Of a stretch of 64,000 bases of DNA, positions 2,168-49,355 are shown piece by piece. Source of the stretch: an uncultured Planctomycetaceae bacterium (GTDB taxonomy: Bacteria; Planctomycetota; Phycisphaerae; SM23-33); NCBI GenBank assembly GCA_964531695.1, contig CAZHEH010000004.1:68232-132231 (forward strand), written 5' to 3'. The stretch's first letter is position 1. Every line of letters begins with the position of its first letter. The notes below the pieces were generated by a model that saw only the letters and a program-made list of their open reading frames with translations, was not told the DNA's origin and ran no database searches. The position numbers and the translations under genes were made by a program.

Positions 2168-3037
2168 ATGTCGGCCGCCCCACCTGCCGTTCTCGTCTGT
2201 CGTTGCACGCAATGCGCCCACGTGCCCGATGAGGTTCCCGCGCAAGTCCTGGAAGACCTATGGCACGCGGGCATCGCCTGCTACGCCGTGGATGACCTGT
2301 GCCGCCTGGCCGCCCGGAAGGACCCGATGCTGGCCGGCTTGGCCGCCGAGACGGACCTCACGGTCGTCGCGTGCCAACCACGGGCCGTACGTTGGCTCTT
2401 TCACGCGGCCGAGGCCGACGGGCTCAACGGCGGCCCGCACGTTCTCAACATGCGGCAGGCCGGCGCGGCGGAGATCGTGAAGCAACTCGTCCCTGGCGGC
2501 ACCCCCGCAAGCCGGCGTGCGGCGCGGCCGTCGCCCAGGCCCGAGCCCGATTCGGATTCGGACGGGTGGATGCCCTGGTTCCCCGTCATCGACTACGACC
2601 GCTGCACCGGATGCCGGCAGTGCCTGGGCTTCTGCCTTTTTGGCGTATACGCAGTCGAGGACGGCCGCGTCGTCGTTGCCCATCCGGACAAATGTAAGAC
2701 CTACTGCCCCGCCTGCGCGCGCGTGTGCCCGAATGGGGCCATCCTGTTCCCGAAGCATGAATCCGAGGCCATCAACGGCGGCGAGAACGGCGACGCCGGC
2801 GAACCCGTGCAGGTCGATCTGTCGAAGCTTGCCGGGGGGAACCTGCACGATACCCTCCGGCGACGCAGCCGGGCCGTCCGAAACGGGCAGGAGCCGCAGC
2901 AAGCGGACGAGCCCTGCGCCTGCTCGCGCTTGCGGGAGCTGCAAGAACAGCTCGGCATCCCGGACGACGTGATCCGGCGGATCGAGCGCGAGTCGAAGGG
3001 CGGCTCGCCTCCCCGCGCCGACGGGGGCGGCACTTGA
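2168..3037 (+). CDS. Ferredoxin-like protein (2x 4Fe-4S) with a Cys-containing N-terminal domain
   Basis: CTGCRQCLGFC and CKTYCPACARVCP motifs; extra Cys in VCRC, DDLC, VACQPRAV and CAC. Confidence 0.8.
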   Translation: MSAAPPAVLVCRCTQCAHVPDEVPAQVLEDLWHAGIACYAVDDLCRLAARKDPMLAGLAAETDLTVVACQPRAVRWLFHAAEADGLNGGPHVLNMRQAGAAEIVKQLVPGGTPASRRAARPSPRPEPDSDSDGWMPWFPVIDYDRCTGCRQCLGFCLFGVYAVEDGRVVVAHPDKCKTYCPACARVCPNGAILFPKHESEAINGGENGDAGEPVQVDLSKLAGGNLHDTLRRRSRAVRNGQEPQQADEPCACSRLRELQEQLGIPDDVIRRIERESKGGSPPRADGGGT

Positions 3038-4614
3038 TCGGTCCCGCCGCCCCACTTCGCCCGGCCGTGGTGCTCGTGGCCGACCCGACCCTCAGCGCGG
3101 ATTACAGTGTGCTGTTCGAGGGCATATTCGCCACAATGCAGACTTCCGAGGTGCCCTCCTGGCTGATGCGGCGTTTGATGTGTCGCCCGGCAGCCCGTGA
3201 CGCGCGCGGGCGGGCGCGGGTCGCCCCACTGGGCCTGCGGCGGATGGAAGCGTGTCTGCTCGCCCGGACGGGCCTCCGGCCCGAGGACATCGCCGTCGCC
3301 ACGCCCCAATGGGTCGACTCACTGCTCGGCCCGTGGACCCGCCTTGTCGCGGTCTCGAGCAGCGATCCGCTCGGGCGGGGCATGAGCAACTCGACGACCG
3401 TTCACTTCTGCCGCGGCGAGCTGTACACGCAGCTCTGGACCGACCGGCTCATGCGGCGAATTCGACGGTCCAAGGACGAGCACGGCTTCCGCGTGGTCGC
3501 GGGCGGGGGCGGCGCGTGGCAGTACGCCCAGGACGCCGAGGCGACCGAGCGGCACGGGGTCGACACGGTATTCGAGGGCTACTTCGAGCGGCAAGGCCCG
3601 GACCTGTTCCAACGTCTGGGGGCCGGCGGGCCCGCCCCGCCGCACGTGCGCGAGGACGGCGCCGCCCTGCCGGTCGAGCCGATCCGCGGGCCGAGCACGA
3701 TGGGCATGGTCGAGCTGTCCCGCGGCTGCGGCAAGGGATGCCGCTTCTGCATCGCCGGGCGGACCGCCATGGAGCACGTTCCGATCGACACGATCCTGGC
3801 CGACGTGGAACGAAACGTCGCGGCCGGGCTCTCGTGCGCCGTCAGCAGCAGCGAGGACTTCTTCCGCTACGGCGGCCGGGGGCCGCACGTGGACTACGAT
3901 GCCCTGCATGGCCTTCTCGTCCGTCTGGGCGAGATCGAAGGGCTGCGGCTGCTGCAGATCGACCACGGCAATGTATCCTCGATCGCCCAGCTCGACGTGC
4001 CGCAGCTCCGCGAACTCCGCCGCCTGCTGGCCCGAGGAGGCGCGTCGGAGTATCCGTGGGTCAACATCGGTGTCGAGAGCGCGAACGGAGCTCTCGTGGC
4101 CGCGAATGGGCCGGGCAAAGTCGCCCCCTTCCGCCCGGACGCCTGGGAAGGTCTCGTCCGGGACGTGGCGGCCCGGCTGCACGAGGCCGGCTTCTTCCCG
4201 GTCTTCAGCATCGTGCTGGGCCTTCCCGGAGAGGCCCCGGACGACGTCGCCCGGACCCGCCGGCTCGTCGAGGAGCTGAAACGCCGCCCCGCGGCCGTGT
4301 TCCCGGTGTTCCATCAACCGGTGCAACCCGATGCCGGAGATGCGCTTACGCCCGCCAACCTGCGCCCGGACCAGCTCGAGCTGTTCACCGCCTGCTACGA
4401 GGCGAACTTCCGCTGGGTGCCCCGGCTGTATTGGGATAATCAGCGTGCGGCCGGCGTTCGGTGGACGCGCCGCGCCCTGTTGCAGCTACTCGGGCGCGGC
4501 GAGGTGCGGCTGTGGAGGCGGCGCTTCCGTCGGATGCGGCGGCGCATCCGCCCCGGCTCGGGCGCCGGCGCGGCCGTGTTGGACTCCGCGGCCGGACAGG
4601 TCGAAGGAGCATAG
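3034..4614 (+). CDS. Radical SAM enzyme, class B-like; N-terminus resembles the archaeal Grs (GDGT ring synthase) family
   Basis: CxxxCxxC motif (CGKGCRFC); ~230-aa N-terminal domain containing APLGLRRMEA, DPLG and VVAGGGG; TTG start overlaps the upstream stop. Confidence 0.85.
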   Translation: MIGPAAPLRPAVVLVADPTLSADYSVLFEGIFATMQTSEVPSWLMRRLMCRPAARDARGRARVAPLGLRRMEACLLARTGLRPEDIAVATPQWVDSLLGPWTRLVAVSSSDPLGRGMSNSTTVHFCRGELYTQLWTDRLMRRIRRSKDEHGFRVVAGGGGAWQYAQDAEATERHGVDTVFEGYFERQGPDLFQRLGAGGPAPPHVREDGAALPVEPIRGPSTMGMVELSRGCGKGCRFCIAGRTAMEHVPIDTILADVERNVAAGLSCAVSSSEDFFRYGGRGPHVDYDALHGLLVRLGEIEGLRLLQIDHGNVSSIAQLDVPQLRELRRLLARGGASEYPWVNIGVESANGALVAANGPGKVAPFRPDAWEGLVRDVAARLHEAGFFPVFSIVLGLPGEAPDDVARTRRLVEELKRRPAAVFPVFHQPVQPDAGDALTPANLRPDQLELFTACYEANFRWVPRLYWDNQRAAGVRWTRRALLQLLGRGEVRLWRRRFRRMRRRIRPGSGAGAAVLDSAAGQVEGA

Positions 4615-4618
4615 CCGA

Positions 4619-6253
4619 ATGAACTCAAGCGAACGTGCCGACAAGGCGACCGTCCGGCGGCGGGTGAACCGCCCCGTCCAGCCGGGCATACCGGCCGCGA
4701 AGGCCGAGCGGGACCGGCTGCGGAGGGACATCCGCGCGTTCGTGGAGCGCGAAAGGGTCTCCCCGCCGTTGAGCGTGCCCGAACTCCAGGCCCTCGCCGC
4801 TCGCGCCGTGGACGCGCTCGGCACGGACGCCGCCTACCGCGACTTCGCTGCAATCCTCATCCACAACGCAGCGTGGCGCGAGACCGTCGCGGGCATCCCC
4901 TACGACCGCCGGCTGTTGCTGGTGCCGCAATGCCTCCGGGACGCCGAGCGCTGCCCGGGCGAGATCGACGAGTACGGCCTGCTGTGCCGGCGCTGCGGGC
5001 GGTGCGTGCTGGACGAGTTGCACGAGGAGGCCGAGGCGCTCGGATACGCGGTGATGGTCGCCGAGGGCTCAGCCGTGGTCATGTCGCTGGTTGAGTCCGG
5101 CCGGATTCAGGCGGTCGTCGGCGTAAGCTGCCTGAGCGTTCTGGAGCAGGTCTACCCGTACATGGAGGCGGGTGCGGTGCCGGGGCTGGCGATTCCTCTG
5201 CTGCAGGACGGCTGCCGCGACACGGCCGTGGACGTGGACTGGCTGCTCGAGGAGATTCACCGGTCCAGCGAGCACCCGTTCACCCGACTGGCCCTCGACG
5301 ACCTGCGGGAGCGCGTCGACGGCTGGTTCGCCCAAGAAGACCTGTACGACCTGCTGGGTCGGCCCGCCGGCGAGGCCGAGCGGCTCGGCCGGGACTGGCT
5401 GGCGCTGGCGGGCAAGCGCTGGCGCCCGTTCCTGGCGGCCACGGCCTACCAGGCCCTCTGCGACGAGCCGGACGCCCCCCTGCCGGCTGACGTTCGTCGG
5501 GCGGCCGTGGCGGTCGAGTGCTTCCACAAGGCGAGCTTGATCCACGACGACATCGAGGACGACGAGCGCGAACGCTACGGAGCGCCGACGATGCACGTCG
5601 CCCGCGGCGTGCCCGTGGCCCTGAATGTCGGGGACTTCCTACTCGGTGAGGGCTACCGCCTGCTGGCCGAGTGCGACGGGCCGGCCCCCGCGATGCTCCG
5701 GGCGGCCGCCCAAGGCCACCGCGAACTTTCGCTCGGACAGGGCGCGGAGCTGACCTGGCGCGGCGAGAGCCGTGAGCTGTCGCTGGAGGAGGTGCTGGAC
5801 ATCTTCCGCCGAAAGACGGCGCCGGCCTTCGAGGTCGCTCTACGCGTCGGGGCGGCGTGTGCCGGAGCCCCGGCCGAGCTGGACCGACCGATTTCGCGAT
5901 ACTGCGAGGCGCTCGGCATCGCCTACCAGATTCGCGACGACCTGCGGGACTTCGACGGGCACGACGGCGACCTGGCGGCCGGCCGGCCTTCGGTCGTGCG
6001 GGCACTGGCGCGGGCCAAGCTCCGCGGACCCGTGACGCCCGACGCGGCGAAGCGCTGCGGCGCGGTGGACGAGGCGTGGGCGCTGCTGGAGAGCCACAAG
6101 GACCGAGCGGTCCACTCGCTGGCGGAGATCGACAGCGTTGCGCTCAAGTGCCTGCTGCGCCGCATCCTCGGCAAGATCTTCTGCGATGTCGAGATCATGC
6201 CCTGCTGCAACGACGCGCCCCCGGACGACCCCGGCGCGTTCGAGCCGCGATGA
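4619..6253 (+). CDS. DUF116-like Cys-rich domain fused to a trans-polyprenyl diphosphate synthase
   Basis: LLVPQCLR, CRRCGRC and GVSC (DUF116-like); FARM HDDIEDD, KT motif and SARM YQIRDDLRD; RBS GAAGGAG before the ATG at 4619. Confidence 0.85.
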   Translation: MNSSERADKATVRRRVNRPVQPGIPAAKAERDRLRRDIRAFVERERVSPPLSVPELQALAARAVDALGTDAAYRDFAAILIHNAAWRETVAGIPYDRRLLLVPQCLRDAERCPGEIDEYGLLCRRCGRCVLDELHEEAEALGYAVMVAEGSAVVMSLVESGRIQAVVGVSCLSVLEQVYPYMEAGAVPGLAIPLLQDGCRDTAVDVDWLLEEIHRSSEHPFTRLALDDLRERVDGWFAQEDLYDLLGRPAGEAERLGRDWLALAGKRWRPFLAATAYQALCDEPDAPLPADVRRAAVAVECFHKASLIHDDIEDDERERYGAPTMHVARGVPVALNVGDFLLGEGYRLLAECDGPAPAMLRAAAQGHRELSLGQGAELTWRGESRELSLEEVLDIFRRKTAPAFEVALRVGAACAGAPAELDRPISRYCEALGIAYQIRDDLRDFDGHDGDLAAGRPSVVRALARAKLRGPVTPDAAKRCGAVDEAWALLESHKDRAVHSLAEIDSVALKCLLRRILGKIFCDVEIMPCCNDAPPDDPGAFEPR

Positions 6254-7146
6254 CCCTCCGCGAAGAGATGACTGTCACGGCCCGCCGCGGGGCTGCCGCC
6301 CTCGGCCCGGCGGCGGCCGACGCCGCCGCGTTCGTCGCCTCGCGACGCGGCCCGAACGGCGGCTGGACCGGCCGCTCCGGGGAGGACGACCTGTACTACG
6401 GCGTCTTCGCCACGGCCGCGCTGGCCGCGCTGGGGCAAGACGCGTGCGACCCCGAGCTGCGCGCATGGCTGGCGGCCGCGCCGGAGCCCGACGCCCTGGA
6501 CCTGGTCCACCTGAGTTCGCTGATCCGCTGCCGGGCGACGGCCTGCCCGGAGCAACTGGACGAGACCTTCCGCACGGCCGCACTGGCGCGACTCGGGGCG
6601 TTTCGCAGCGCCGACGGCGGCTACGCGCTCGTTCCGGCCGGACGATCCGGCAGCGCATACGGCGCGTTCCTGGCGCTCGGGGCGCTCCAGGACCTGGGCG
6701 CTGCAGCGGACGACCCCGACGCCACGGCCGGGGCTCTGGCCGCGCTTCGCCCGTCCACCGGCGGCTACTGCAACGAGACGGCGGTCCCCGCGCCGTCCGC
6801 GCCGGCGACCGCCGCGGCCGTGGCCGTCCTGCACCAGCTCGGCCGGCCGACGGATGACGCGGCCCTGAGGTGGCTGCGCGAGGCGTGCTACCGCGGCGGC
6901 GGCTTCACGGTCGTGCCCGCACTGCCCGTGCCGGACCTGCTCTCCACAGCGGTGACCGTGCACGCCCTGGCCACCTGCGGCTTTCCCCTCGGCGACATCG
7001 CGGGCGAGGTACGCGAGTTCGTAATGGCCCGTCGCACCCCAGCCGGCGGCTTCTGCGCGTCGGCCGCCGACACCGAGCCGGACGTCGAGTACACGTTCTA
7101 CGGGCTGATGGCGATGGGACACGTCGCCGCGGAGGGGGACGGATGA
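6250..7146 (+). CDS. Prenyltransferase/squalene-oxidase-repeat (alpha/alpha barrel) protein
   Basis: Repeated QW-like motifs (GPNGGW, SADGGY, STGGY, GGGF, TPAGGF) and DVEYTFYGL; ATGA overlaps at both ends. Confidence 0.75.
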   Translation: MTLREEMTVTARRGAAALGPAAADAAAFVASRRGPNGGWTGRSGEDDLYYGVFATAALAALGQDACDPELRAWLAAAPEPDALDLVHLSSLIRCRATACPEQLDETFRTAALARLGAFRSADGGYALVPAGRSGSAYGAFLALGALQDLGAAADDPDATAGALAALRPSTGGYCNETAVPAPSAPATAAAVAVLHQLGRPTDDAALRWLREACYRGGGFTVVPALPVPDLLSTAVTVHALATCGFPLGDIAGEVREFVMARRTPAGGFCASAADTEPDVEYTFYGLMAMGHVAAEGDG

Positions 7147-8939
7147 GCGCCGCCCCGGCCGGACTCGACGAAACGCTCGACCGCGCCCGCGCGCACCTGT
7201 TGGCCGCCCGCAACGCGGACGGCCATTGGCGCGGACGGCTGAGCAGCAGCGCCCTGGCCACAGCCACGGCCGTGGGGGCCTGGGCCCTCGCGGATCGATC
7301 CGAACGGCAGGACCGCATCGCCCGCGCCCTCGACTGGCTGGCAGCCGACCAGAACGCCGACGGCGGCTGGGGCGACACGCCCGACAGCGGCAGCAACATC
7401 GCTACCACGTTGCTGGCCTGGTCCGCCCATGCGCTGGCCGGGCAGGATGGCGGCGACTGGGAACCGACGCTGGCAGCCGCCCGGAGCTGGCTGGCCCGGC
7501 AGGCGGGCTCGCTGGAGCCGGACCGGCTCGTGGCCGCCGTACACGAACGCTACGGCAACGACCGCACCTTCTCCGCTCCGATCCTTACGATGGGCGCGCT
7601 GGCCGGGCGGCTCGGCGGCGGGCGCGACGCCTGGCATACCGTCGCGCCGTTGCCCTTCGAGTTGGGAGCCCTGCCGCACCGCGCTCTGCGGTGGCTGCGG
7701 CTGCCGGTGGTGAGCTACGCCCTGCCGGCGATGATCGCCATCGGCCTCGCGCGGCAACACCATCGCCCGTCGGCCAACCCGTTGCGGCGGCTCAGCGCGC
7801 GGATGGCGCGCCGGGCGACGCTCCAGCGCCTGACGGCGATCCAGCCGGAAAGCGGCGGCTACCTCGAGGCCCCGCCGCTGACGGCATTCGTGGCGATGGC
7901 ACTGGCCTCCACCGGACGCACGGACCACCCGGCCGTGCGGCGGGGGTTGGCCTTCCTCGACGCGCTCCAGCGCGACGACGGCTCCCTGCCGATCGACACG
8001 GACCTGGCCACATGGCTGACGACGCAGGCCATCGAGGCGCTCGCCGGCGTCGGGCCCGCCCTTGCCGACACGGACGCGGTGCGAGTCCGCGCCTGGCTGC
8101 TCGCCCAACAGCACCGGCGGCCGCACGTCTACACCGGCGCGGCGCCCGGCGGCTGGGCTTGGACGGACCGAGCCGGCGGCGTGCCGGATGCCGACGACAC
8201 GGCCGGTGCGCTGGTCGCGCTGCGTGCGCTGCCCGGCGACCGGCCGCGAGAGGCCGCGTCACACGGCATCCGGTGGCTGATGGACCTGCAGAACCGCGAC
8301 GGCGGGATCCCAACCTTCTGCCGCGGCTGGGGCCGCCTGCCGTTCGACCGGAGCTGTGCGGACCTCACGGCCCACGCCCTCCGCGCCTGGCGGGCCTGGC
8401 GAGCCGAGTTGCCGGAGCTGCACGGCCGGATCGAACATGCATCCCGGCGGGCGCTGGCGTACCTGCAAGGCGCCCAGCGGGCCGACGGCGCGTGGCTGCC
8501 ATTGTGGTTCGGCAACGAGGCCTCACTCGATCAAGCAAACCCCACCTACGGCACGGCCCGCGTGCTGGCCGCCTTGGCCGAGTATGGCAACGCCCCCGGC
8601 GTCCCCGAGATGGTCGCCGGCGGCGCCGCCTGGCTCTGCTCCACCCAAGGCCCGGACGGCGGCTGGGGCGGGGACGCCGACTGTCCGCCGAGCGTCGAGG
8701 AGACGGCCCTGGCCGTCGACGCGATGACACGAACGGCTCGGGCCGACGCCGAAGACGGCGCGCACCGCCGGGCCGCCCAGCGCGGCGCCGCCTGGCTCAT
8801 CGAGCGGACGGACGCCGGGCGAAGCTTCCCGGCCGCACCAATCGGGCTCTACTTCGCCGAGTTGTGGTACGCCGAGCGGCTGTACCCCGTCATATTCACC
8901 GTCTCGGCCTTATCCCGCCTTCGTGTGAGGCGGCCTTGA
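7143..8939 (+). CDS. Squalene-hopene cyclase-like class II terpene cyclase
   Basis: Intact DXDD motif (PDADDT); QW repeats QNADGGW, QRDDGS, QNRDGG, QRADGAW and QGPDGGW; IGLYFA near the C-terminus. Confidence 0.88.
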   Translation: MSAAPAGLDETLDRARAHLLAARNADGHWRGRLSSSALATATAVGAWALADRSERQDRIARALDWLAADQNADGGWGDTPDSGSNIATTLLAWSAHALAGQDGGDWEPTLAAARSWLARQAGSLEPDRLVAAVHERYGNDRTFSAPILTMGALAGRLGGGRDAWHTVAPLPFELGALPHRALRWLRLPVVSYALPAMIAIGLARQHHRPSANPLRRLSARMARRATLQRLTAIQPESGGYLEAPPLTAFVAMALASTGRTDHPAVRRGLAFLDALQRDDGSLPIDTDLATWLTTQAIEALAGVGPALADTDAVRVRAWLLAQQHRRPHVYTGAAPGGWAWTDRAGGVPDADDTAGALVALRALPGDRPREAASHGIRWLMDLQNRDGGIPTFCRGWGRLPFDRSCADLTAHALRAWRAWRAELPELHGRIEHASRRALAYLQGAQRADGAWLPLWFGNEASLDQANPTYGTARVLAALAEYGNAPGVPEMVAGGAAWLCSTQGPDGGWGGDADCPPSVEETALAVDAMTRTARADAEDGAHRRAAQRGAAWLIERTDAGRSFPAAPIGLYFAELWYAERLYPVIFTVSALSRLRVRRP

Positions 8940-9182: not shown

Positions 9183-9211
9183 TTGACAAGGCCCCTTCTG
9201 AAACCTATATT
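9183..9211 (+). promoter_or_regulatory. sigma70 promoter upstream of dksA
   Basis: TTGACA-N17-TATATT. Confidence 0.8.
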
Positions 9212-9296: not shown

Positions 9297-9968
9297 GTGG
9301 CGAAGGCGAAGTCAACCTCAGGGAGCTCCGGCAAGTCCGGCCGCTCCGCCCCCAAGAAGGCCTCCTCGGCCAAAAAGGCCGCGAAGAAGTCCACTGCGAA
9401 GAAGTCCACCGCGAAGAAGTCCACCCGTAAGAGCTCCGCCGCGAAGAAGACCACCGTTCAGAAGAGCTCAAAGGCCAAAACGACCGGTAAAAAGTCCAAT
9501 AAGGCCGGATCCAGCAAGGCAAAATCCACGAAGAAGCGCGTCACCAAGCCCCGGGCCGCCGAGGCCTCACCGCTGACCAAGACGCAACTCCGGGAGCTTC
9601 GCGACCTGCTGCTGGGGAAGCGGCGTTCGCTGGTCGGCGACATGACGGGAATCCAAGACTCGAACGGCGGCTGGCAGGACGGCAACGCGGGCAGCATGCC
9701 GACGCACCCGGCCGACATCGGCACGGACAACTACGAGCACGAGTTCACGCTCGGACTGCTCGAAAGCGAGCGGGCCTTGCTTGCGGAGATCGACGAGGCC
9801 CTGGAGCGCATGGAAAACGGCACCTACGGCGTCTGCCAGGGCACCGGCCAGCCGATCGGCTACCCTCGCCTTCGCGCCCGTCCTTGGGCGAAGTACTGCA
9901 TCGACTACGCCCGGAAGATCGAGAAAGGGCTGGTTCGCCCCGGCGAGCCCGGGCCGGAAGCCGGCTAA
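9297..9968 (+). CDS. dksA: DksA/TraR-family regulator with a Lys/Ala/Ser-rich N-terminal tail
   Basis: HPADIGTD coiled-coil tip, IDEALERMENGTYGVC and RLRARPWAKYC. Confidence 0.85.
   Translation: MAKAKSTSGSSGKSGRSAPKKASSAKKAAKKSTAKKSTAKKSTRKSSAAKKTTVQKSSKAKTTGKKSNKAGSSKAKSTKKRVTKPRAAEASPLTKTQLRELRDLLLGKRRSLVGDMTGIQDSNGGWQDGNAGSMPTHPADIGTDNYEHEFTLGLLESERALLAEIDEALERMENGTYGVCQGTGQPIGYPRLRARPWAKYCIDYARKIEKGLVRPGEPGPEAG
9381..9425 (+). repeat. Three tandem 15-bp repeats (GCGAAGAAGTCCACY) encoding AKKST
   Basis: Read directly from the sequence. Confidence 0.9.
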
Positions 9969-19518: not shown

Positions 19519-22500
19519 CTACCGGCCGGCCACCGCATCCGGCTTGGGCGTGATCGTCATCAGGCCGCTGCCCGAGATCGCCTCGATGAAAGGCGTGTAC
19601 ATCGCCTCGGCCGAGCTGGGCAGCACGCGGAACGTGCCGGGCTGCTCGCACACGAGCGTGTAGGTCAGCTCTCGCTCGCCCTTGGGCACCCAGCTCGCGA
19701 AGAACGCCACCTTCGTGTCCCGCAGCTCCATGTTGGCGTACATGCCGTCGCCGTACGCCGAGCCGCTGACCAACCGGAACGGCTCGCAGCCGGAGGGCTT
19801 GGGATCCTCGAACACGACGTATTCCAGGTTCTCGTCCGCCTCGATGGTCAGCTTGACCTCCACCCGCTGGCCCGTCGTGATTTCCGCGCCGAACTCCAGC
19901 GGCTCCCGGTTGTAGCGCAGATCCGGGAACTTCTCGGTCACGACCTTGCCGTTCTTCCACACCTGCCGCGTGTTCTCGAACTCCTCGGGCACGAGGCGGA
20001 AGTACTCGCGCGTGACGGCGATCCGGTGCCCGGCCGGCTCGATGACCTCCGCCTTGTCGAAGTACCGCAGGTGCCCGCCCCAGTACAGGTTGCCCTTGCC
20101 GGAACGGCGGATCTCGACGGTGTGCTCTCCGGGCGGCAAGGCCCCGGCCGGGATGACCGCGCGGCTCGGGAAGGTGAACAGGTTGTCCTTTCGGACGCGA
20201 ACCTCGTGCACCTTGCGCCCGTCGACGAGCACGGTGTACGTCTGGTCGCAGTCCAGCTCGCCTGCCTTGCGGGCGTAGCGGGCCAGGGCGTAGACCGCCA
20301 TGGCCGTGCCCTTCGTGTTGTGCCAGTACACGCCGCGGCGGTTCTGCACGAGCCAGTTGGCCGCCATCGGCACGTGCTCGTGGTCGGGGTCCACCGTCAG
20401 CATCGCCTGGAGCACCCAGGCGGTCGTCTCCGTCGCGCCCTGGTACCAGTACCACCAGCCGCCGGTGTCGCCCCAATGGGCGACGCCCTGGGCCTCGTCG
20501 ACCGTCACGGTGTTCTGGAAGTTCTCGACGATCGTCCGGGCCTCGCCATTGCGCTCGGCCGAGTGCAGGGCCAGGGCCAAGTACGCCCGGCCGTAGTCGG
20601 TCATGCGGTCACGCGCCTTGAACAGCCGGTCCAACTCGGCCGTGAGCTTCTCGTTCTTCGCCCAGGCATTGCCACGGGCCCGCCCGATCACGTAGTGCAT
20701 GAATGCCCGCGTGTTGTCGTTGTAGGTGTGCCGCCACCACCAGTTGGGCCGCTCGCCCGCCTCCAGCGGCGGCCGTGCGGCCCGCTCGACGAGCCAGTCG
20801 GCGGCCCGGTTGATCATGCCATCCGCCACGTGGACATCCACTTGCTGGGCCTCGACCAGTCCGAACGTGACGTAGGCCGTCATGTACGGGTCGCTCGAGC
20901 CGTGCCGCCACCAGCCCCAGCCGCCGTCGCCGTGCTGGAAGCCCTTCAGCCGGTTCAGCCCGTCGGCGATCATCTTCTCGACCTCGCGCTCGGAGTAGAC
21001 CGGGTTGCGGCCCATCCGCTTGCGGATGAAGGCGTAGCGGGCCTTGAGCTTGGGGTCGGCCGCGCTGCGGTCCTCGACCATCTCGCGGATGTCGTCCAGG
21101 TCCACGCCCGCGGCGTCCAGCGTCTGCCGAACGACGACGGTCGGGAGGAAGCGGCTCATCGTCTGCTCCGTGCACCCGTACGGGTAGCGGGCGAGGTACG
21201 GCAGCGCGTCCATCGCCACGGCCGCCAGGGACGGCTTCAGCGTAACGGTCAGCGACTGCGAGCCCTCGCCGATCGCCTCCGGCACGGTGATGTTGAAGCG
21301 GACGTTGTCGTCGCCGGCGCCGGTCATCGCGCCGCTCCGGCCGATGAGCTTGGATGCGCCCCAGGGGACGATGGGCTTGGTCCGCTCGTACGCGTCGCTC
21401 TCGCGGGCGCCCAGCGCGCGGGCCGTGAGCTTAACGTCGCCCGGCCGGGCCGCGGTAGTCTTGAAGTCCACGCGAACCTCCCCACCGGCCGCGACCGTCA
21501 CGTCGAGGGGCTGGCCGGAGTCGTAGTCCCGCCACTCGCCCTCGACCTTCGCCTGCCGCAGCGTCAGCTCGCCGCCCAGTCCCTCGCTCTTGAGGTCCAG
21601 GCGGAGCTGCTGGGGCTCGTCGTAGTAGTTGTGGGCGATGAGCGTGACGTAGCTGTGGTCGCCCTCGGTGAAGAACCGTCCGCTCTCCAGCCGGACGATA
21701 ACCCGCTTGGTGGTGATCACGTCCGTCCGCGTCTGTCCGACGCGGGTGTCCTTGTCCACCGCAATGGCGTGCAAGGCGAACGTCGTGAGCTGGTCGGGCA
21801 TGGTGACGGGAACCTCGGCCATGCCGTCGGCGTCCGTCTCTACCGCGCCGGCCCACAGGACCGTGTCCCGGAACTCCTTGCGGACCATGGGCTCGACAAG
21901 CCCGCTGCCCTCGTCATCCATACTTCTACCCTTGGCCATGGGGCGGCCAGCCGGGGCTGGCGCTGCCGCGTCGGCCTCCTTTATCGCCTCGCGCATCTGG
22001 CGCATCGCGACCCCATCAACAAGGCGGGGGACCGGACCGCGAAAGCCGGTCCCCCGCCCCCCCGGCCAGCCCGCCAGGCGTGCCGGACCGTAGTAGCTGT
22101 CCATCGTGGAGACACGCGTGTGCCGCACGAAGCCGTAGAACGACTTCTCGATCTGCTCGCGGAACTCCGGCTGGATGTAGTAGACGCTCGAGTCGACCAT
22201 CATCAGGGCGACCTGCCCGACGACGGGCTTACCCGTGCGGCGGTCGGTCAGCTTGACCTGAACGGGGGCCTCCTCCCGCGGCTGGTACTTCGCATCCTCG
22301 CCTCCGCCCTTGGAGCCCTTGCCGACCTGGACCTCCACGTCCAGGAACCGGTGCGTCGGCGGCACGACGATCTGCTTGGCGTCCCGGTAGACCTTCTCGT
22401 CGCGCAGCATCGTCGCGGTCAGCGTGAAGTTCGGGCACAGCGACTTGTCCACGTCGATCTCGACGAGCTTGGAGTTCTTCTCCACGTGCACGACGCGATG

Positions 22501-25317
22501 GAACAGCAGGTCGTCCGCCTCGCCGGTCAGCAATACGCGGCTGTTCTCCCGGCTGGTGTTGACGAGGACCCGCATCGTCTCGCCGATCTCGTACTGGTCG
22601 GACGCAGGAACGATCCGGAGCAGGTTGTAGGCGTAGTTCGCCTCGGCGCCGGTCTTGCTGGCGACCCACAGTTCGCACGTGCCCTCGACCGGCTTGGGAT
22701 CCGCGCCCAGTTCGCCCTCGGGCCGAATCTCCCGGAGCGTCACACGGAAGCGACCGGTCATGTCCGGGGTGAAGCGGAACCGCGCCCGCCCGTTCTCGTC
22801 GACCTGGACGTCGCCCTCGTGGACCTTCTCCGCCAGCCGCTCCTCCCAGATGACCTTCTGGTTCCCGGCCTCGTCTTCTTCCACCTGCCGAATCCGCTCG
22901 ATCCGGCGGACCTCGGCCCGGAAGCCCGCCATCACCGGCTGGCCGGAGGGGTTCTCTGCGCGGACCTTGACCTCGACGCTGTCGCCCGGCCCATACACAT
23001 GCCGCGCCGGCTCGCAGTAGACGAAGAACGGTGCGTGCGTCACCTTCACCGAGCCCGTCGAGCGGATCACGCGGCGGGACGCGTCGGTCACCTCGGCCTG
23101 CACGGCGAACTGGAGATCCAGCTTCTCGTGGCCCTCGATCGGCTCGGCCTCGACCGTCACGAACGCCTCGCCCTCATCGTTCATCTGGGCCGTGCCGCGG
23201 GCGACCAGCTCGTCGAAGCGCGGACCCCACCCGTGGTGGCGGTACCGGCTGCCGCTGAGTTCAGCCCAGTACCAATGCCACGGGCGGGGCCAGTAGTAGT
23301 TGTGGTTATAGCTCTGCTTGCGGACGGTGAAGCTGACCTCGCCGCCGGAGACCGGCTGTCCGTAGTAGTAGTCGGCCGAGATCTTGATGCGGACCTCGTC
23401 GCCCACGCGGTAGTCCGGCCGGTCGGGCTCGACGGACACCTTGAACTCCGGCTTCTTGTACTCCTCGACGCGGAAGCGGTTGCCCGGCATGTACCAGTGG
23501 TGAACGTCGTGCCCCTGGACGTTGAGCTGGATGCGGTACACGCCCAGCGGCGGCTGCTCGCCGATGGCAAGCGAGCCGGTCAGGGCACCGTACTCGTCCG
23601 TGACGTGCTCCTTGGAGTAGATTGTCTCGCCCTTCGGGTTGATGACCTTGACCCGTACCTTTTTGCCGGCGACGTTGTGGTACACGCCGTCCTGCATGTG
23701 ACGGATGACCTGCTTGAAGTGCACCGTCTGGCCCGGTCGGTACACCGGCCGTGCCGTGAAGCCGTAGACTTTGTACGGCTCGCGCCAGCCCCACCAGTGC
23801 CAGTGGTAGCCCCCGTGGCCAGTGATCGCCTGGTGCTTGCCGTCGCGGACGGCCGCGATCCAGTTGCACGACGGCACACGGGGCAGCTCGAGCTCGGCCA
23901 GTCCGGCGTCGTTCGTCTTCCCCGAGGCGAGGCGGCCCTTATCGCCGCGGTCGCGCACGACGGTCACGGCCGCGGCGCCGGCCGGCTCGCCCGTGTCGGC
24001 GTCGGCGACGAACAGCAGCGCCTGATCCGCGTCCATCTTGGCCACGGCCGCGAGCTTGGACACGACGACGAGGCACGTCGCCTTCTCGCTCTTGCCGTCA
24101 GGGTTGGCGCCCTCGGCCGTGATGAGCCAGGCACCGGGCCCTTCAACCGGCGGGCGGATGGGAACCGTTGTCTGCTTCTCGCGGTCGGGCGCGTTCTGAT
24201 GCCACTGGTGCTTGCCCTCATCGGGGGTATCGAAGGTCCACGTATGCTCCGGCTCGCCCGCCGCCGGTGTCATCTCCCGCACGGCCCTGTGCGGGTCCTT
24301 GACGCGCTTCAGCGCCTCGGGCAAATCGATCGGTCGGGCCGTCAGGCGGAGCCGATCGATGTTCCGCACCTGCCAGCGGACGGCGAGCTCGTCGTCCGGC
24401 AGGAAGGCGCCCTTGACCGCCAAGGTAACCTGGGGGCGCTTGATGGCCTCGATCTCATCCTTCGCGCGCCCGATCCATTCCTTCGCCTTGGGGAAGCTCT
24501 CGCGGACCTTCTCGAAGGCGGCGATCGCCTCCGTGTACCGTCCGAAGTTGCGGCAAACATGCCCGACGGCGAACTGCGAGGCGGCCGCCTGCTCGAGCTT
24601 GGGGAAATCCTCGGCGCAGCGGCGGAACAGCTCGATGCCCTTCGAGGCCGCCTCCCAGTCGCCCAGCTCGCTCACTCGCTGCCCGGCCGTGTAAAGCGCT
24701 TGCGCCCGCGTGAGGTCCTTGGCGCCGTCCAGCTCGGCAACATGCTCGTAGATCTCCGCGGCCTTGAGCACGTGATGCCGCCTGCGCTGCTGCCAGTGCC
24801 ACGGCTCGCCGGCTTCCTTCTGCTGGGCGGGCTGGGGCAGCCAGTAGCTGTGGAGCAGCATCTCGGCCGCCTTCAGGTACGCCTGGGCCGCCTCTTGGTC
24901 GGAATCCGCCTTCTCCAGGACTTCCCCCGCCGCCTTGTAGTGCTCGAAGGCCTTGTCCCGGGGGCCGCGGCGTTCCTGGCACCAGGCCAGCGCCAGCAGG
25001 AACTCGGCGTCCTCGGCCAACTCCGGGTGGTCTTCCATCAGGGTGGCGGCGAACTCGCGCCCGTCCTTGTCCGGCAGGCGGCACGTGCTCATCGCCTTGA
25101 GCCGCTTGGCGGCGAAGAGCGTGTCCTCGTCCGGGTCGGAGGCGATGACCTCTTCGGCCAGCTTCATGGCGTCCCGGTAGTTGTGCCGCTCGTAGGCCTT
25201 CTCGGCTTCGCTTAGCGTACCGTCGGCGACGGCGACGCCCACCAGGATGAACGCGGCGAGCAGGCACAGGGCCAAGCCGTAGCCCGGCCGTCCGTGGGTC
25301 GAGTGGGTGCGGGACAT
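19519..25317 (-). CDS. Alpha-2-macroglobulin family protein with an N-terminal TPR region
   Basis: 1932 aa with a signal peptide; MG motifs (YRPGQTV, FRVEEYKKPEF, VRKEFRDT, PDQLTTF) and the thioester motif YPYGCTEQ. Confidence 0.93.
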   Translation of the reverse strand: MSRTHSTHGRPGYGLALCLLAAFILVGVAVADGTLSEAEKAYERHNYRDAMKLAEEVIASDPDEDTLFAAKRLKAMSTCRLPDKDGREFAATLMEDHPELAEDAEFLLALAWCQERRGPRDKAFEHYKAAGEVLEKADSDQEAAQAYLKAAEMLLHSYWLPQPAQQKEAGEPWHWQQRRRHHVLKAAEIYEHVAELDGAKDLTRAQALYTAGQRVSELGDWEAASKGIELFRRCAEDFPKLEQAAASQFAVGHVCRNFGRYTEAIAAFEKVRESFPKAKEWIGRAKDEIEAIKRPQVTLAVKGAFLPDDELAVRWQVRNIDRLRLTARPIDLPEALKRVKDPHRAVREMTPAAGEPEHTWTFDTPDEGKHQWHQNAPDREKQTTVPIRPPVEGPGAWLITAEGANPDGKSEKATCLVVVSKLAAVAKMDADQALLFVADADTGEPAGAAAVTVVRDRGDKGRLASGKTNDAGLAELELPRVPSCNWIAAVRDGKHQAITGHGGYHWHWWGWREPYKVYGFTARPVYRPGQTVHFKQVIRHMQDGVYHNVAGKKVRVKVINPKGETIYSKEHVTDEYGALTGSLAIGEQPPLGVYRIQLNVQGHDVHHWYMPGNRFRVEEYKKPEFKVSVEPDRPDYRVGDEVRIKISADYYYGQPVSGGEVSFTVRKQSYNHNYYWPRPWHWYWAELSGSRYRHHGWGPRFDELVARGTAQMNDEGEAFVTVEAEPIEGHEKLDLQFAVQAEVTDASRRVIRSTGSVKVTHAPFFVYCEPARHVYGPGDSVEVKVRAENPSGQPVMAGFRAEVRRIERIRQVEEDEAGNQKVIWEERLAEKVHEGDVQVDENGRARFRFTPDMTGRFRVTLREIRPEGELGADPKPVEGTCELWVASKTGAEANYAYNLLRIVPASDQYEIGETMRVLVNTSRENSRVLLTGEADDLLFHRVVHVEKNSKLVEIDVDKSLCPNFTLTATMLRDEKVYRDAKQIVVPPTHRFLDVEVQVGKGSKGGGEDAKYQPREEAPVQVKLTDRRTGKPVVGQVALMMVDSSVYYIQPEFREQIEKSFYGFVRHTRVSTMDSYYGPARLAGWPGGRGTGFRGPVPRLVDGVAMRQMREAIKEADAAAPAPAGRPMAKGRSMDDEGSGLVEPMVRKEFRDTVLWAGAVETDADGMAEVPVTMPDQLTTFALHAIAVDKDTRVGQTRTDVITTKRVIVRLESGRFFTEGDHSYVTLIAHNYYDEPQQLRLDLKSEGLGGELTLRQAKVEGEWRDYDSGQPLDVTVAAGGEVRVDFKTTAARPGDVKLTARALGARESDAYERTKPIVPWGASKLIGRSGAMTGAGDDNVRFNITVPEAIGEGSQSLTVTLKPSLAAVAMDALPYLARYPYGCTEQTMSRFLPTVVVRQTLDAAGVDLDDIREMVEDRSAADPKLKARYAFIRKRMGRNPVYSEREVEKMIADGLNRLKGFQHGDGGWGWWRHGSSDPYMTAYVTFGLVEAQQVDVHVADGMINRAADWLVERAARPPLEAGERPNWWWRHTYNDNTRAFMHYVIGRARGNAWAKNEKLTAELDRLFKARDRMTDYGRAYLALALHSAERNGEARTIVENFQNTVTVDEAQGVAHWGDTGGWWYWYQGATETTAWVLQAMLTVDPDHEHVPMAANWLVQNRRGVYWHNTKGTAMAVYALARYARKAGELDCDQTYTVLVDGRKVHEVRVRKDNLFTFPSRAVIPAGALPPGEHTVEIRRSGKGNLYWGGHLRYFDKAEVIEPAGHRIAVTREYFRLVPEEFENTRQVWKNGKVVTEKFPDLRYNREPLEFGAEITTGQRVEVKLTIEADENLEYVVFEDPKPSGCEPFRLVSGSAYGDGMYANMELRDTKVAFFASWVPKGERELTYTLVCEQPGTFRVLPSSAEAMYTPFIEAISGSGLMTITPKPDAVAGR

Positions 25318-25407
25318 CGGCGTTCCTTTCCTCGGGCCGGGGCATGTGCCGACCCGATCTCGTACGGGGAGTTGGACGCCATCAGGCGCTGAAAGTTCCC
25401 GCCTTCA

Positions 25408-32802: not shown

Positions 32803-32831
32803 TTGACTTTGGGCCCGTCCTGATCTAGACT
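32803..32831 (+). promoter_or_regulatory. sigma70 promoter
   Basis: TTGACT-N17-TAGACT. Confidence 0.75.
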
Positions 32832-32902
32832 TAGGTGTATGGCCTGACCGGACTCGTGCCGCCCGGATCGTATGGCGCCACGTCCACGGAAGGAGCATCT
32901 CT

Positions 32903-33940
32903 ATGGCGAATGACGCGAAGACCTCGCAGTGGATCGGCGGATGGGGGGGGGCCGCGCTCATCGCGTCCCTCGTCGTCGCGGGATTGGCGATCTTGGCATG
33001 CGTGCTCTTGGCCGTCATAGCCGGCGTCAACGGCGTCTGGAGCACGATGGCCGCGTACGTCGTGCTCCTCGCGGCCTTGGTGGCCGCGGGACTATGGTGC
33101 GTGGTCCTGCACCGGGTGCTGGGCGTGATCGTCCGCAACGAGGAAGGCGTGCAGGCCACGGCCCAGCGGCTCAGCCGCGTGGAATCTCTTCTGGAGAGCC
33201 AGATCGGCTCGCTCCGAAAGCTGGTCGAGTTGGAAAGCTTGTCCGACCGGGCCAAGAGCTTGGTCTTCCGCGAGGCGGAGACACAGGCGCTGCGCGAAGC
33301 GATCCACCACGAGGTGATGCAGCAGAACTACGATGGAGCCGCCAAGATCATCGACGCCGCCGAGCGGCAGCTTGGCTACGGCCCCGAGGCCGAGAAGCTC
33401 CGCGGGGAGTTGACCCAGTCCCAGCAGCGTTCGCTCGGGGAGAGAATCGACGCGGCCGTGGCACGCATCGACGACCTGGTGGCCGGCCAGGATTGGCCCG
33501 CCGCCTACCGGCAGGCCCAACGGCTGATGGGGCTGTTCCCGGACGACGAGAAGGTCCAAGGCCTGCCCGAACGCATCACCACGGCCCGCAACGAGTACAA
33601 GCGAGGACTGCTCACCGACTACGCCGAGGCCGTGCGCCGCAATGACGTTGACCGCGGCATCGAACTGCTCCATCGGCTCGACGCCTACTTGACGCCCCAG
33701 GAGGCGGCCGCGCTGGAGGAATCCGCCCGCGGCGTGTTCAAGGAGAAGCTCCACACGCTGGGCGTGCAGTTCTCGATCCTGGTGTCGGATCATCGCTGGT
33801 CGGACGCGCTGACCACGGGCGAGCAGATCATCCGGGAGTTCCCCAATTCCCGCATGGCCCAGGAGGTTCGCGAGAAGCTGGACCTCCTCCGCAGCTACGC
33901 CGCCCAGGGCGCTCCGGGCTCCGGCGCTCGCACCGGCTGA
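32903..33940 (+). CDS. Hypothetical membrane protein (two TM helices and a large helical domain)
   Basis: Coding-like ORF with two hydrophobic segments, downstream of a promoter and RBS (AAGGAG). Confidence 0.75.
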   Translation: MANDAKTSQWIGGWGGAALIASLVVAGLAILACVLLAVIAGVNGVWSTMAAYVVLLAALVAAGLWCVVLHRVLGVIVRNEEGVQATAQRLSRVESLLESQIGSLRKLVELESLSDRAKSLVFREAETQALREAIHHEVMQQNYDGAAKIIDAAERQLGYGPEAEKLRGELTQSQQRSLGERIDAAVARIDDLVAGQDWPAAYRQAQRLMGLFPDDEKVQGLPERITTARNEYKRGLLTDYAEAVRRNDVDRGIELLHRLDAYLTPQEAAALEESARGVFKEKLHTLGVQFSILVSDHRWSDALTTGEQIIREFPNSRMAQEVREKLDLLRSYAAQGAPGSGARTG

Positions 33941-38089: not shown

Positions 38090-38440
38090 CTACCCCTCGA
38101 TCTTCGTCACGCGGACCTGGACGTACTTCTGACGATGCCCCGTCTTCGTCCGTGAGGACTTACGGCGGCGCCACTTGTGGCTGTGAACCTTCGGGCCCTT
38201 GTGCTCGGCGTCGACGATCTGTGCCGTCACGCTCGCGCCCTCCACCAGCGGGGTCCCGACCTTGACGGCGCTCTTGTCGCCCTCATCGCCGTCTCGCTCC
38301 GGCGTGCCCGGGCTGATCAGCAGCACGCGCTCGAACCGCAGCTCGGTCTGCCCCTCGTCCAAGTCGCGCAAATCCACGTTCAGCACATCGCCCTCGGCCA
38401 CGCGGAACTGCTGGCCACTATCTTCGATCACTGCGTACAC
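38090..38440 (-). CDS. rplU: 50S ribosomal protein L21
   Basis: MYAVIEDSGQQFRV, VGTPLVEGA and GHRQKY. Confidence 0.95.
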   Translation of the reverse strand: MYAVIEDSGQQFRVAEGDVLNVDLRDLDEGQTELRFERVLLISPGTPERDGDEGDKSAVKVGTPLVEGASVTAQIVDAEHKGPKVHSHKWRRRKSSRTKTGHRQKYVQVRVTKIEG

Positions 38441-38473
38441 GGTGGTGTCTCCTGTGCTCAGGCAAAGAGCAAG

Positions 38474-38503
38474 ATTCTAGCCGCCCCCGCGGCTTGGCGT
38501 CAA
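38474..38503 (-). promoter_or_regulatory. sigma70 promoter of rplU
   Basis: TTGACG-N18-TAGAAT on the minus strand. Confidence 0.65.
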
Positions 38504-38580
38504 CGGCTTTCGCGGCGCCCTGGGCTTGGCGTCTTGCGGCGCCAAGGCCGGTACGGCGGCGCTTCACCAATTGCACTCGG

Positions 38581-38609
38581 TGGACAGCGGTCCGGTCCGC
38601 CTCTACAAT
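38581..38609 (+). promoter_or_regulatory. sigma70 promoter
   Basis: TGGACA-N17-TACAAT. Confidence 0.65.
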
Positions 38610-38659
38610 GCCGGGCCGCTCGGCCGCGGCCGGGCGCGAGCCGAAAGGATCCTCTACCC

Positions 38660-43028: not shown

Positions 43029-43705
43029 CGCCCCGTGAGCACAATCCGCCCGAGAGCCAGCGCCGCCGCCAGGCCGGGCCAGACCAGCGCCGCCCAGGCC
43101 GGACGGGGGAAGACGCCGCCGGACTGCCGGGCCACCTGCCACGCGAACGTCGCCGGCGCGAGCCGGCCGATCGCCCGCCCGGCCGTGGGAGTCGCGAACT
43201 CCAGCGCGATGTAGTGAACCGCGGGCAGGGCCAGCCCGGCGGCCACGGGCAGCAGCAGGAGAAGCCACCGCCACTCCCGCAACTCGGCCAGCAGCCCGCC
43301 AACGGCCAGCGGGACGGTCCACACACACAGCACGTAGACGACAACTCGCAGCACGTCCGGCGCGGTGGCGTTCGAGACGTGGGCGGCCGGAACGTACAGC
43401 GGAAGCGTCACCAGCAGCAGACCGAGCATCTCCACGCCCGAGCGACGCCAGTAGTGCTCCGCTCGCCCGCGTGCAGCCCGTTGCAGCGCCGCCACGGGCC
43501 AAGCCAACAGCCCGAAAAGCACCTGCGCGGCCGCGAGGATCGACAAGGCCGGCAGGACCGGCTCGATTCGGCCGGTGATCGGCACGTAGAACCAGCGAGG
43601 GTACAGACCGGCCATGAATGCCAGCAGGCACGCCGCCAGATAGAGCAACCCGAGCGGCTGCCACAGGGCAGACAGCACCGTCCGCCTTGTCGAGTACTGG
43701 ATCAT
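42950..43705 (-). CDS. Hypothetical multi-pass membrane protein directly downstream of ftsQ
   Basis: About 6-7 hydrophobic segments; starts 5 nt after the ftsQ stop; overlaps the corA 3' end by 79 nt. Confidence 0.7.
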   Translation of the reverse strand: MIQYSTRRTVLSALWQPLGLLYLAACLLAFMAGLYPRWFYVPITGRIEPVLPALSILAAAQVLFGLLAWPVAALQRAARGRAEHYWRRSGVEMLGLLLVTLPLYVPAAHVSNATAPDVLRVVVYVLCVWTVPLAVGGLLAELREWRWLLLLLPVAAGLALPAVHYIALEFATPTAGRAIGRLAPATFAWQVARQSGGVFPRPAWAALVWPGLAAALALGRIVLTGRYSQRLRRNHASMTSPTQSMTSSTAG

Positions 43706-43710
43706 GTCGC

Positions 43711-44823: not shown

Positions 44824-44852
44824 CTGGGCGCCTCCGTGCTTCCCAATATCCC

Positions 44853-45833: not shown

Positions 45834-45834
45834 G

Positions 45835-49315: not shown

Positions 49316-49355
49316 CGCTTGAAGCTTACCGCTCGTGGCACCGAACCGCGACCGC

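Follow-up and report, generated by a model that had tools for sequence, protein, structure and literature searches.

On a 64-kb stretch of planctomycete DNA (contig CAZHEH010000004.1; 'the window' below always means this whole stretch), five genes of the + strand at 2168–8939, here called g1–g5, encode a class II polyprenoid pathway that is real and widespread but uncharacterised and has its own iron–sulfur (Fe-S)/radical module, a variant of class II terpenoid biosynthesis. Judging from their sequences, we put the probability at roughly 55% that the five genes form a single operon and specify a self-contained route, independent of oxygen, to a cyclised polyprenoid not derived from squalene. 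Its product is most likely a ring-bearing isoprenoid other than a hopanoid, and probably a membrane-associated lipid. The genes, with the motifs that matter for this reading, are located as follows (squalene–hopene cyclase is abbreviated SHC, and S-adenosylmethionine SAM).

1913–2167, no strand: divergent intergenic region between rex (− strand) and g1, of lower G+C, the presumed operon promoter region
2168–3037, + strand: g1, Fe-S protein of 289 aa
3034–4614, + strand: g2, radical SAM enzyme of 526 aa; its TTG start lies within TTGA and overlaps the g1 stop
3727–3750, + strand: CX3CX2C motif of g2, CGKGCRFC
4619–6253, + strand: g3, DUF116–polyprenyl synthase fusion of 544 aa
~4811–5254, + strand: DUF116 Fe-S domain of g3 (Pfam), with seven invariant Cys including CxxCxxC
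5546–5560, + strand: first Asp-rich motif (FARM) of g3, DDIED
5936–5950, + strand: second Asp-rich motif (SARM) of g3, DDLRD
6250–7146, + strand: g4, single alpha/alpha-toroid of 298 aa; ATGA overlap
6931–6951, + strand: degenerate acid motif of g4, PDLLSTA
7143–8939, + strand: g5, two-barrel class II cyclase of the 'SHC-like' type, 598 aa; ATGA overlap
8187–8204, + strand: catalytic DADDTA of g5, the class II acid motif

According to the calls of open reading frames (ORFs), these same-strand genes fill 2168–8939 without spacing. The initial annotation had described five translationally coupled genes, and the junctions it gave (TTGA, a 4-nt gap, ATGA and ATGA) are right to the base; at the single gap, which follows the TAG of g2, a GAAGGAG is found 8 nt upstream of g3. 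The domains it had named for g1, g2, g3 and g5 agree with Pfam and NCBIfam. For g4, called a prenyltransferase barrel, the toroid stands (the Prenyltrans match is at cut-off), but the protein is better read as a catalytically degenerate paralogue of the cyclase barrel than as a prenyltransferase. The self-contained oxygen-independent class II route that it proposed is supported in essentials; the radical cross-linking that it considered is at most putative. No match to a sigma-70-like promoter was found on the + strand within g1–g5, and none to the sigma-70 consensus on the + strand of 1913–2167; the next such + strand match (11/12) lies at 9183–9211, ahead of the downstream dksA-like gene. 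No intrinsic terminator was found 3′ of g5, where the local fold is no better than that of shuffled sequences. All five proteins lack a clear transmembrane helix, and G+C around the unit is ~0.65–0.76.

The chain-building step is assigned to g3, which is predicted to carry an intact head-to-tail prenyl diphosphate synthase. Its two halves score far above their Pfam cut-offs (polyprenyl_synt, PF00348: 137.6 bits against 27; DUF116, PF01976: 115.3 bits against 25), and 14 homologues from several phyla all share the FARM DDIED, the SARM DDLRD, GKRWRP and KT without change. Small residues (S, A) at –4 and –5 ahead of the FARM, and the lack of an insertion in it, argue for a product of C20 or longer. 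We also tried to take the chain length from the nearest solved synthases and set this aside, as farnesyl diphosphate (FPP), geranylgeranyl diphosphate (GGPP), octaprenyl, nonaprenyl and decaprenyl synthases score alike. Homologues of g3 number in the thousands at 50–60% identity and are named GGPP synthase by JGI.

The other catalytic anchor is g5, by its sequence a two-barrel class II (protonation-type) cyclase with intact DxDDTA, His and Tyr, and not a canonical hopene cyclase. Pfam detects both SQHop_cyclase_N (PF13249, 69 bits) and SQHop_cyclase_C (PF13243, 131 bits). The protein aligns to SHC of A. acidocaldarius (1gsz) at E = 4e-27, with PDADDTA over PDVDDTA and with H411 and Y469 matching the His and Tyr partners of SHC (TAH and YGT segments). 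DxDDT, H411, Y469 and many Trp and other aromatic residues are invariant in 20–42 homologues. The model for hopene_cyclase (TIGR01507) gives only 112.2 bits against a cut-off of 431, however, and the broader squalene_cyclas model likewise stays below threshold (141.5 against 322.7).

These scores bear on the simplest alternative, an ordinary hopanoid locus in which g5 would be an SHC supplied with squalene from another part of the genome. Both SQHop_cyclase domains (N and C), the DxDDTA motif, SHC as the top PDB match and the label squalene-hopene cyclase that JGI gives to homologues all speak for it. SHC/hpn clusters likewise combine a two-barrel cyclase, DxDDTA, His/Tyr and O2-independent cyclisation, and hopanoid pathways also employ radical SAM enzymes. 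But apart from the sub-threshold scores, every g5 is linked to a head-to-tail synthase of its own, where hopanoid clusters have squalene-forming enzymes. As the initial annotation had noted for the unit, squalene synthase, HpnCDE and HpnH/P-type enzymes are missing; in fact no protein of the Sqs, HpnCDE, HpnH, HpnP or HpnR type is encoded in the unit, its flanks or the rest of the window. Furthermore, hopanoid clusters have no counterpart of g1 or of the DUF116 Fe-S protein, g2 falls outside the HpnH, HpnP and HpnR families, and NCBI names g5 homologues generically ('prenyltransferase/squalene oxidase repeat-containing protein'). Published phylogenies, too, separate the clade to which we compare g5 from SHC (PMC7306690, PMC12324236). 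We consider a hopanoid locus very improbable.

That clade, the 'SHC-like' cyclases, was defined by Santana-Molina et al. 2020 (PMC7306690), who found that its Planctomycetes members keep the catalytic residues and that their context suggests a precursor other than squalene. A 2025 preprint by McShea et al. (PMC12324236) traced it through the PVC and FCB groups, Spirochaetota and Acidobacteriota, named Gemmata obscuriglobus as a carrier, placed it as sister to the cyclases of regular, non-dimerised polyprenyl chains, and reported a gamma barrel closer to the triterpenoid-type than to the diterpenoid-type profile. The same authors describe its function and structure as undetermined even in tractable species and call for characterisation. 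In its length, its domain detection, its taxon range and its motifs, g5 fits this clade. Its 598 aa fall into the 550–700 aa class and both barrels are detected by triterpenoid-type Pfam N/C models. g5 loci come from Planctomycetota, Verrucomicrobiota, Bacteroidota, Acidobacteriota and more, and the retained class II residues and non-squalene genomic context are shared, with nothing conflicting.

The GGPP synthase label of g3 homologues, taken with the DxDD of g5, could instead suggest a labdane-type diterpenoid secondary-metabolite cluster, in which the product of a GGPP synthase would be converted to a bicyclic diphosphate by a class II diterpene cyclase and the remaining genes would serve tailoring. 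Weaker PDB matches of g5 include the Streptomyces class II cyclase 6vpt and 7xq4/7xr7, which we take to be drimenyl diphosphate synthase. The FARM context of g3, 'HKASLIHDDIED', resembles that of type-III GGPP synthases and would count on the same side. Against this, g5 is ~600 aa long and matches SHC at 4e-27 but bacterial diterpene and drimenyl cyclases at only 1e-5 to 2e-8. Bacterial class II diterpene cyclase clusters pair a DxDD cyclase of ~500 aa with a class I synthase, whereas g1–g5 contain neither a class I terpene synthase nor a P450. The synteny is housekeeping-like across ten or more phyla rather than patchy, and the clade is placed with triterpenoid and polyprenyl cyclases (PMC12324236). 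A labdane-type cluster is therefore rather unlikely in our view.

In length (~300 aa), toroid fold and GGF...D..Y repeats, g4 resembles the beta subunits of protein prenyltransferases. Its Prenyltrans score (PF00432) is precisely at the cut-off, 26.5, and its best PDB profile matches are the beta subunits of RabGGTase (9e-11) and FTase (6e-9). It differs from these enzymes in several respects. Its invariant PDLLSTA aligns on PDADDTA of the neighbouring g5 (hhalign, probability 88%), and this profile–profile alignment points to g4 as a paralogue of the g5 catalytic barrel that lacks the acid. The canonical zinc triad is absent: none of the zinc-ligand-equivalent Cys/His is invariant, and the only near-invariant residues, D84, H87 and C94, are away from the zinc-site positions. 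No alpha-subunit-like gene was present in any locus inspected.

Both sets of observations apply to the idea that g4 is a prenyltransferase acting on a protein or carrier thiol, with a GcvH-like lipoyl protein or the Cys-rich domain of g1 as acceptor and with cyclisation of the chain in place. Besides the PDB relatives of the g4 profile, this idea draws on genes that stand beside the cluster in many phyla and encode a GcvH-like protein (with EGFKA), a cysteine desulfurase and a CobW-type metallochaperone. The lack of an alpha subunit and of invariant zinc-site Cys/His goes against it, as does the better alignment of g4 on the cyclase barrel, and the version of the cluster in the window has none of the GcvH, CobW and desulfurase genes. 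Thiol prenylation thus appears quite improbable.

The remaining two genes and the first half of g3 make up the Fe-S/radical module. By their cysteine patterns and profile matches, g1 and the DUF116 half of g3 are both Fe-S proteins. In g1 a 4Fe-4S dicluster region at residues 137–192, recognised by Pfam and NCBIfam at sub-threshold scores, holds two complete [4Fe-4S] motifs, CxxCxxCxxxC (C146/149/152/156) and CxxxCxxCxxxC (C176/180/183/187). It is preceded by an N-terminal Cys4 domain (C11, C13, C45, C69) without any Pfam match even at E = 5, which in many other phyla is a separate gene of ~116–136 aa, and the protein ends in an acidic/basic tail. The invariant Cys of DUF116 are C105, C112, C123, C126, C129, C171 and C199; the N-terminal transmembrane helices of archaeal DUF116 proteins are absent in g3. 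A fold could not be assigned to DUF116 by Foldseek, which gave no match below E = 1e-3 and just a faint likeness to flavodoxin, CheY and B12 domains. The likeness agrees with a comparative-genomics note of 2015, in which DUF116 was predicted by HHpred to be a flavodoxin-like Fe-S electron-transfer domain and the fusion was mentioned in Pirellula staleyi. In a Bipolaricaulota isolate an unfused DUF116 gene lies beside ispH, shc, hpnH and a polyprenyl synthetase gene, a neighbourhood that provides an independent link between DUF116 and isoprenoid genes.

In the main alternative to our reading, the Fe-S part of this module, rather than the radical SAM enzyme, would perform the core chemistry itself. 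The DUF116 cluster, fed by g1, would then reduce the allylic diphosphate in an IspH-like manner, giving either a polyene as free hydrocarbon or, by reductive 1-1′ coupling, a squalene-like or C40 dimer, and g5 would cyclise this product; squalene synthase or HpnCDE would be replaced without NADPH, FAD or O2. This would account for the covalent fusion of Fe-S domain and synthase being invariant and for g1 and the fusion being the most constant pair, while the radical SAM gene is variable or absent. It would also fit an operon that has no class I synthase or phosphatase to remove the diphosphate, a window without squalene synthase, and the triterpenoid-type gamma barrel reported for the clade (PMC12324236). 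Some hopanoid-producing anaerobes, moreover, lack any known squalene synthase (Santana-Molina et al., PMC7306690). Nevertheless, the account is purely inferential: the 2015 work suggested just generic electron transfer for DUF116, the DUF116 model has no IspH- or IspG-like match, and the sister group of the clade acts on regular chains that are not dimerised. We regard it as unlikely, though deserving of attention, and find it rather doubtful that reductive removal or 1-1′ coupling by Fe-S proteins feeds the SHC-like cyclase to give polycyclic polyprenoids of the tricyclohexaprenol type.

By sequence and predicted structure, g2 belongs to the radical SAM enzymes and has the architecture of the cobalamin-type class, its use of cobalamin being putative. 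It matches Radical_SAM (PF04055) with 36.2 bits (cut-off 29.5); its homologues, 55–66% identical, are named 'B12-binding domain-containing radical SAM protein' by NCBI. Among 37 sequences the invariant Cys are C232, C236, C239 and C454, so that only C454 adds to the SAM-cluster triad. The AlphaFold2 model (pLDDT 89) has an N-terminal B12-binding-like Rossmann domain, and its top Foldseek matches are MgmA, AprD4, MiaB/RimO, TsrM and CysS (E = 5e-15 to 1e-9, TM-score 0.5–0.6), with which g2 shares the overall fold and CX3CX2C at a sequence identity of 10–18%. No family-level hidden Markov model reaches threshold: TIGR04013 of NCBIfam matches weakly (55 bits, cut-off 251), and none of the HpnH-, HpnP- or HpnR-type NCBIfam models matches. 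Two more specific assignments were discarded. A methylthiotransferase is contradicted by the missing N-terminal three-Cys auxiliary cluster and by TIGR00089 (28.6 bits, cut-off 251), and a tetraether-synthase-like enzyme for C–C coupling was set aside because the top 50 structural matches do not include GDGT-MAS.

We surveyed one genome per species for the g3 fusion, so that the resulting counts are lower bounds. The DUF116–polyprenyl synthase fusion is encoded in at least 591 species. Listed carriers belong to Planctomycetota, Verrucomicrobiota, Acidobacteriota (Vicinamibacterales), Bacteroidota (including rumen Bacteroidales), Lentisphaerota, Chloroflexota, Gemmatimonadota, Myxococcota, Desulfobacterota and Armatimonadota; the best identity to the copy in the window among the species representatives listed is 54%. 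The gene set is kept in at least 10 bacterial phyla, usually in the same order and orientation. Of 57 loci whose flanks extend far enough, 44 have g4 after g3 and 36 have g5 downstream; of 53 such loci, 42 have a ferredoxin-like gene ahead of g3 and 38 a radical SAM gene. Across 44 loci, the identity of g3 to the copy in the window correlates with that of g5 (r = 0.78). In one closely related locus (L085) g3 is 97% identical, and the same five genes have the same neighbours.

Since the same genes recur in the same order in unrelated phyla, the arrangement goes far beyond chance. The view that the genes are adjacent by accident and unrelated in function could appeal to nothing but some Verrucomicrobiota with g3 alone; order and orientation kept in ten or more phyla, stop–start overlaps and correlated divergence effectively refute it, and we give it next to no weight. 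An objection to the initial annotation from failed co-occurrence clearly fails for the same reason, as the gene set co-occurs across phyla.

Variation between lineages is concentrated in the radical SAM slot between the ferredoxin-like gene and g3. One occupant is the 526-aa B12-domain-type enzyme, found in the window and in Sedimentisphaerales, Phycisphaerae, Brocadiia, Omnitrophica, Desulfobacterales, Anaerolineales and some Acidobacteriota; this g2 family adjoins g3 in every locus inspected (Sedimentisphaerales L003, Omnitrophica, Acidobacteriota, Brocadiia and L085). The other is an unrelated SPASM/NirJ/AhbD-like enzyme of ~400 aa. We rejected the idea that the two are orthologues, as BLASTP detects no similarity and different NCBIfam families are matched. 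The radical SAM enzyme looks like a swappable, sometimes absent module, with a tailoring or accessory role rather than one in the core chemistry.

In many Verrucomicrobiota, Acidobacteriota, Armatimonadota and Myxococcota and in some Planctomycetota, there are three extra genes upstream, for a cysteine desulfurase of the NifS/IscS/DndA-like type, for a CobW-type GTPase and for a GcvH-like protein in which the lipoyl-lysine motif EGFKA is conserved. These genes, which may represent an Fe-S maintenance, sulfur-relay or dithiol module, have no equivalent in the window, and their carriers appear to be mostly aerobic lineages. A small Cys4 protein is also among the extra genes, and the desulfurase occurs on either flank (loci L001, L002, L009–L011, L016, L020, L023–L027, L039, L042, L049–L058, L063–L067 and L089). 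A strict split into a 'type A' and a 'type B' architecture was considered and dropped: an Acidobacteriota locus (L089) pairs GcvH, CobW and desulfurase with the 526-aa-type radical SAM enzyme, and this combination indicates that modules mix. In some Verrucomicrobiota a 154-aa conserved ORF of no known family follows g4 in place of the cyclase gene (L016, 12613–13077; L021, 5243–5707).

At the other end of the cluster, three loci have, after g5, a conserved protein of ~380 aa and no known family together with a GT4 glycosyltransferase (L087, 5509–10414; L090, 13042–15599; L025, 7454–9324). ABC and FtsX exporter genes then follow in L087, and an ABC ATPase gene that is cut by the end of the locus in L090. 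This extension is a hint at glycosylation and export of the product in some lineages, and because of it we favour a membrane or envelope lipid.

Putting these elements together for the non-squalene polyprenoid route, we propose that g3 would make a regular all-trans prenyl diphosphate of C20 or longer. The chain would be cyclised through protonation of a double bond by g5, which probably forms a complex with g4, a partner that would bind lipid without being catalytic; as the full DxDD acid is kept and an epoxidase is absent, cyclisation would proceed without oxygen. g1 and DUF116 would constitute a dedicated low-potential electron path, tethered to the synthase, that supplies electrons to the radical SAM cluster and perhaps works on the allylic diphosphate as well. 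Radical tailoring would fall to g2, most likely as C-methylation or another C–H functionalisation of the chain or rings.

Several points weigh against this route. To our knowledge, the cultured carriers Pirellula staleyi and Gemmata obscuriglobus are not known for unusual cyclic isoprenoids. The PDB relatives of g3 span C15 to C50 synthases at like scores, so the chain length is unreadable from them. At residues 319–321 of g3 (5573–5581) the near-universal RRG after the first Asp-rich motif is RYG, invariantly throughout the family, a change that may alter the chemistry or substrate handling of the synthase. The AlphaFold2 model of DUF116, an alpha/beta fold, is of moderate quality (pLDDT 68). 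As for g2, it lacks the Pfam B12-binding domain (PF02310), and AprD4 shows that its fold can occur without cobalamin; the radical SAM slot holds two families without detectable similarity, and at 15 of 53 loci the flanks examined show no radical SAM gene. With the slot swapped or empty, the role of g2 may vary by lineage or be dispensable. Lastly, some Verrucomicrobiota have g3 alone (L014 and L044, with unrelated neighbours) or g3 and g4 with no g5 nearby.

Two characterised systems come close to the proposed route. In the Bacillus sporulenol pathway (HepS/HepT, YtpB, SqhC) a dedicated synthase likewise provides the SHC-family cyclase with a regular polyprenyl chain instead of squalene; there, however, the class-I-like YtpB removes the diphosphate, Fe-S and radical SAM proteins are lacking, and other genes and other taxa are involved. 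The epoxy-polyprenyl cyclases of actinomycetes (Lon15, AtoE, Bra4, PlaT2), the reported sister clade, also use regular head-to-tail polyprenyl substrates, mostly for meroterpenoids, but need an O2-dependent epoxidase, whereas the unit in the window has no epoxidase and keeps the full DxDD. Full-text literature searches found no characterised pathway with this gene set, and no function for it is given in reviews of lipid-modifying radical SAM enzymes (2026) and of Planctomycetota (2025) or in a hopanoid survey of 2026. For tricyclic terpane biosynthesis the literature yielded just geochemical papers. The initial annotation had spoken of a candidate undescribed pathway, and the gene set indeed lacks a characterisation in the literature, although parts of it had been flagged: the DUF116–synthase fusion was mentioned in 2015, and the cyclase clade, along with a context that does not point to squalene, in 2020 and again in 2025. 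What we add is the anatomy of the operon, comprising the fusion, the Fe-S protein, the two alternative radical SAM families, the degenerate barrel, and the optional GcvH/CobW/desulfurase and GT4/ABC modules.

On the 5′ side of the unit, the genes for rex, a NuoE-like 2Fe-2S protein and a NuoF-like protein occupy 2–1912 on the opposite (−) strand and are directed away from the operon; on the 3′ side follow genes for a DksA/TraR zinc-finger protein, an M48 peptidase, an RlmN-like protein and an extracytoplasmic function (ECF) sigma factor, and farther on in the window LeuA, SHMT, Lon, MetRS and the dcw cluster. The flanking genes, along with the promoter-like site that the downstream gene has of its own, mark g1–g5 as a bounded unit on an ordinary chromosome segment.

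The best homologues are named as Phycisphaerae or Planctomycetota. The rex genes look like a Rex-headed bifurcating-hydrogenase operon, a marker of anaerobes: in L085 (1–5295) rex-nuoE-nuoF are followed by genes for the large subunit of an [FeFe]-hydrogenase and for a sensor histidine kinase that is hydrogenase-like, and this continuation in a near-identical relative supports an anaerobic, fermentative lifestyle. An anaerobic host is thus plausible. The setting in an anaerobic planctomycete that had been assumed is acceptable to that extent, but the pathway is not special to such hosts, being found also in Verrucomicrobiota, Acidobacteriota, Bacteroidota, Armatimonadota and Chloroflexota. Control of the operon by Rex was considered and not adopted, as the 18-bp Rex box has no match at ≤3 mismatches and rex heads the divergent hydrogenase operon in L085. 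By eye, a weak Rex-box-like imperfect inverted repeat, TGTTAC-N4-TTCACA, which is beyond the 3-mismatch search, can be seen at 1954–1969. It lies directly 3′ of the –10 hexamer of a − strand promoter-like site (2002–1974), at about the rex transcription start.

Elsewhere in the window, the DksA/TraR-type protein (9297–9968, + strand) has a histone-H1-like N-terminal tail of ~95 residues rich in Lys, Ser and Ala, with KKSTAKKST repeats, which explains the strong AT skew (0.34) and the lower G+C at 9–10 kb. An ORF frame of ~1,960 codons at 19519–25404 (− strand), whose start codon is not pinned, corresponds to a bacterial alpha-2-macroglobulin (MG2, bait region, TED, MG10). The dcw cluster (~43700–58800, − strand) includes MraW, a penicillin-binding protein (PBP) transpeptidase and Mur ligases, and shows that peptidoglycan synthesis genes are kept in this planctomycete-like genome. 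At 38156–39799, 32807–33940 and 42950–45006 there are a DUF6786 protein and several confidently coding ORFs with high GC at third codon positions (GC3) but without a Pfam match.

Hopanoids and sterols are class II cyclised isoprenoids that shape membranes and whose fossils are read as biomarkers. Both published studies (PMC7306690, PMC12324236) treat the SHC-like clade as the main uncharacterised branch of these cyclases, whose substrate is needed to settle how triterpenoid cyclisation evolved. We find that in at least 591 species this clade comes together with a chain synthase of its own, a module for Fe-S electron transfer and a radical SAM enzyme, which turns the open question about SHC-like substrate and product into a defined five-gene construct, with cultured carriers named. 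Should Fe-S chemistry prove to be at the core, it would open a third way to precursors of the triterpenoid type and would trace orphan biomarkers of polycyclic terpanes, the tricyclic terpanes among them, to a biological source. If the pathway does yield a new polycyclic lipid made without oxygen, this would give DUF116 its first function, provide a first example of a prenyl synthase with a fused Fe-S domain and offer a possible source for orphan terpanes, and would add a lipid class to abundant bacteria of soil, freshwater, sediment and gut.

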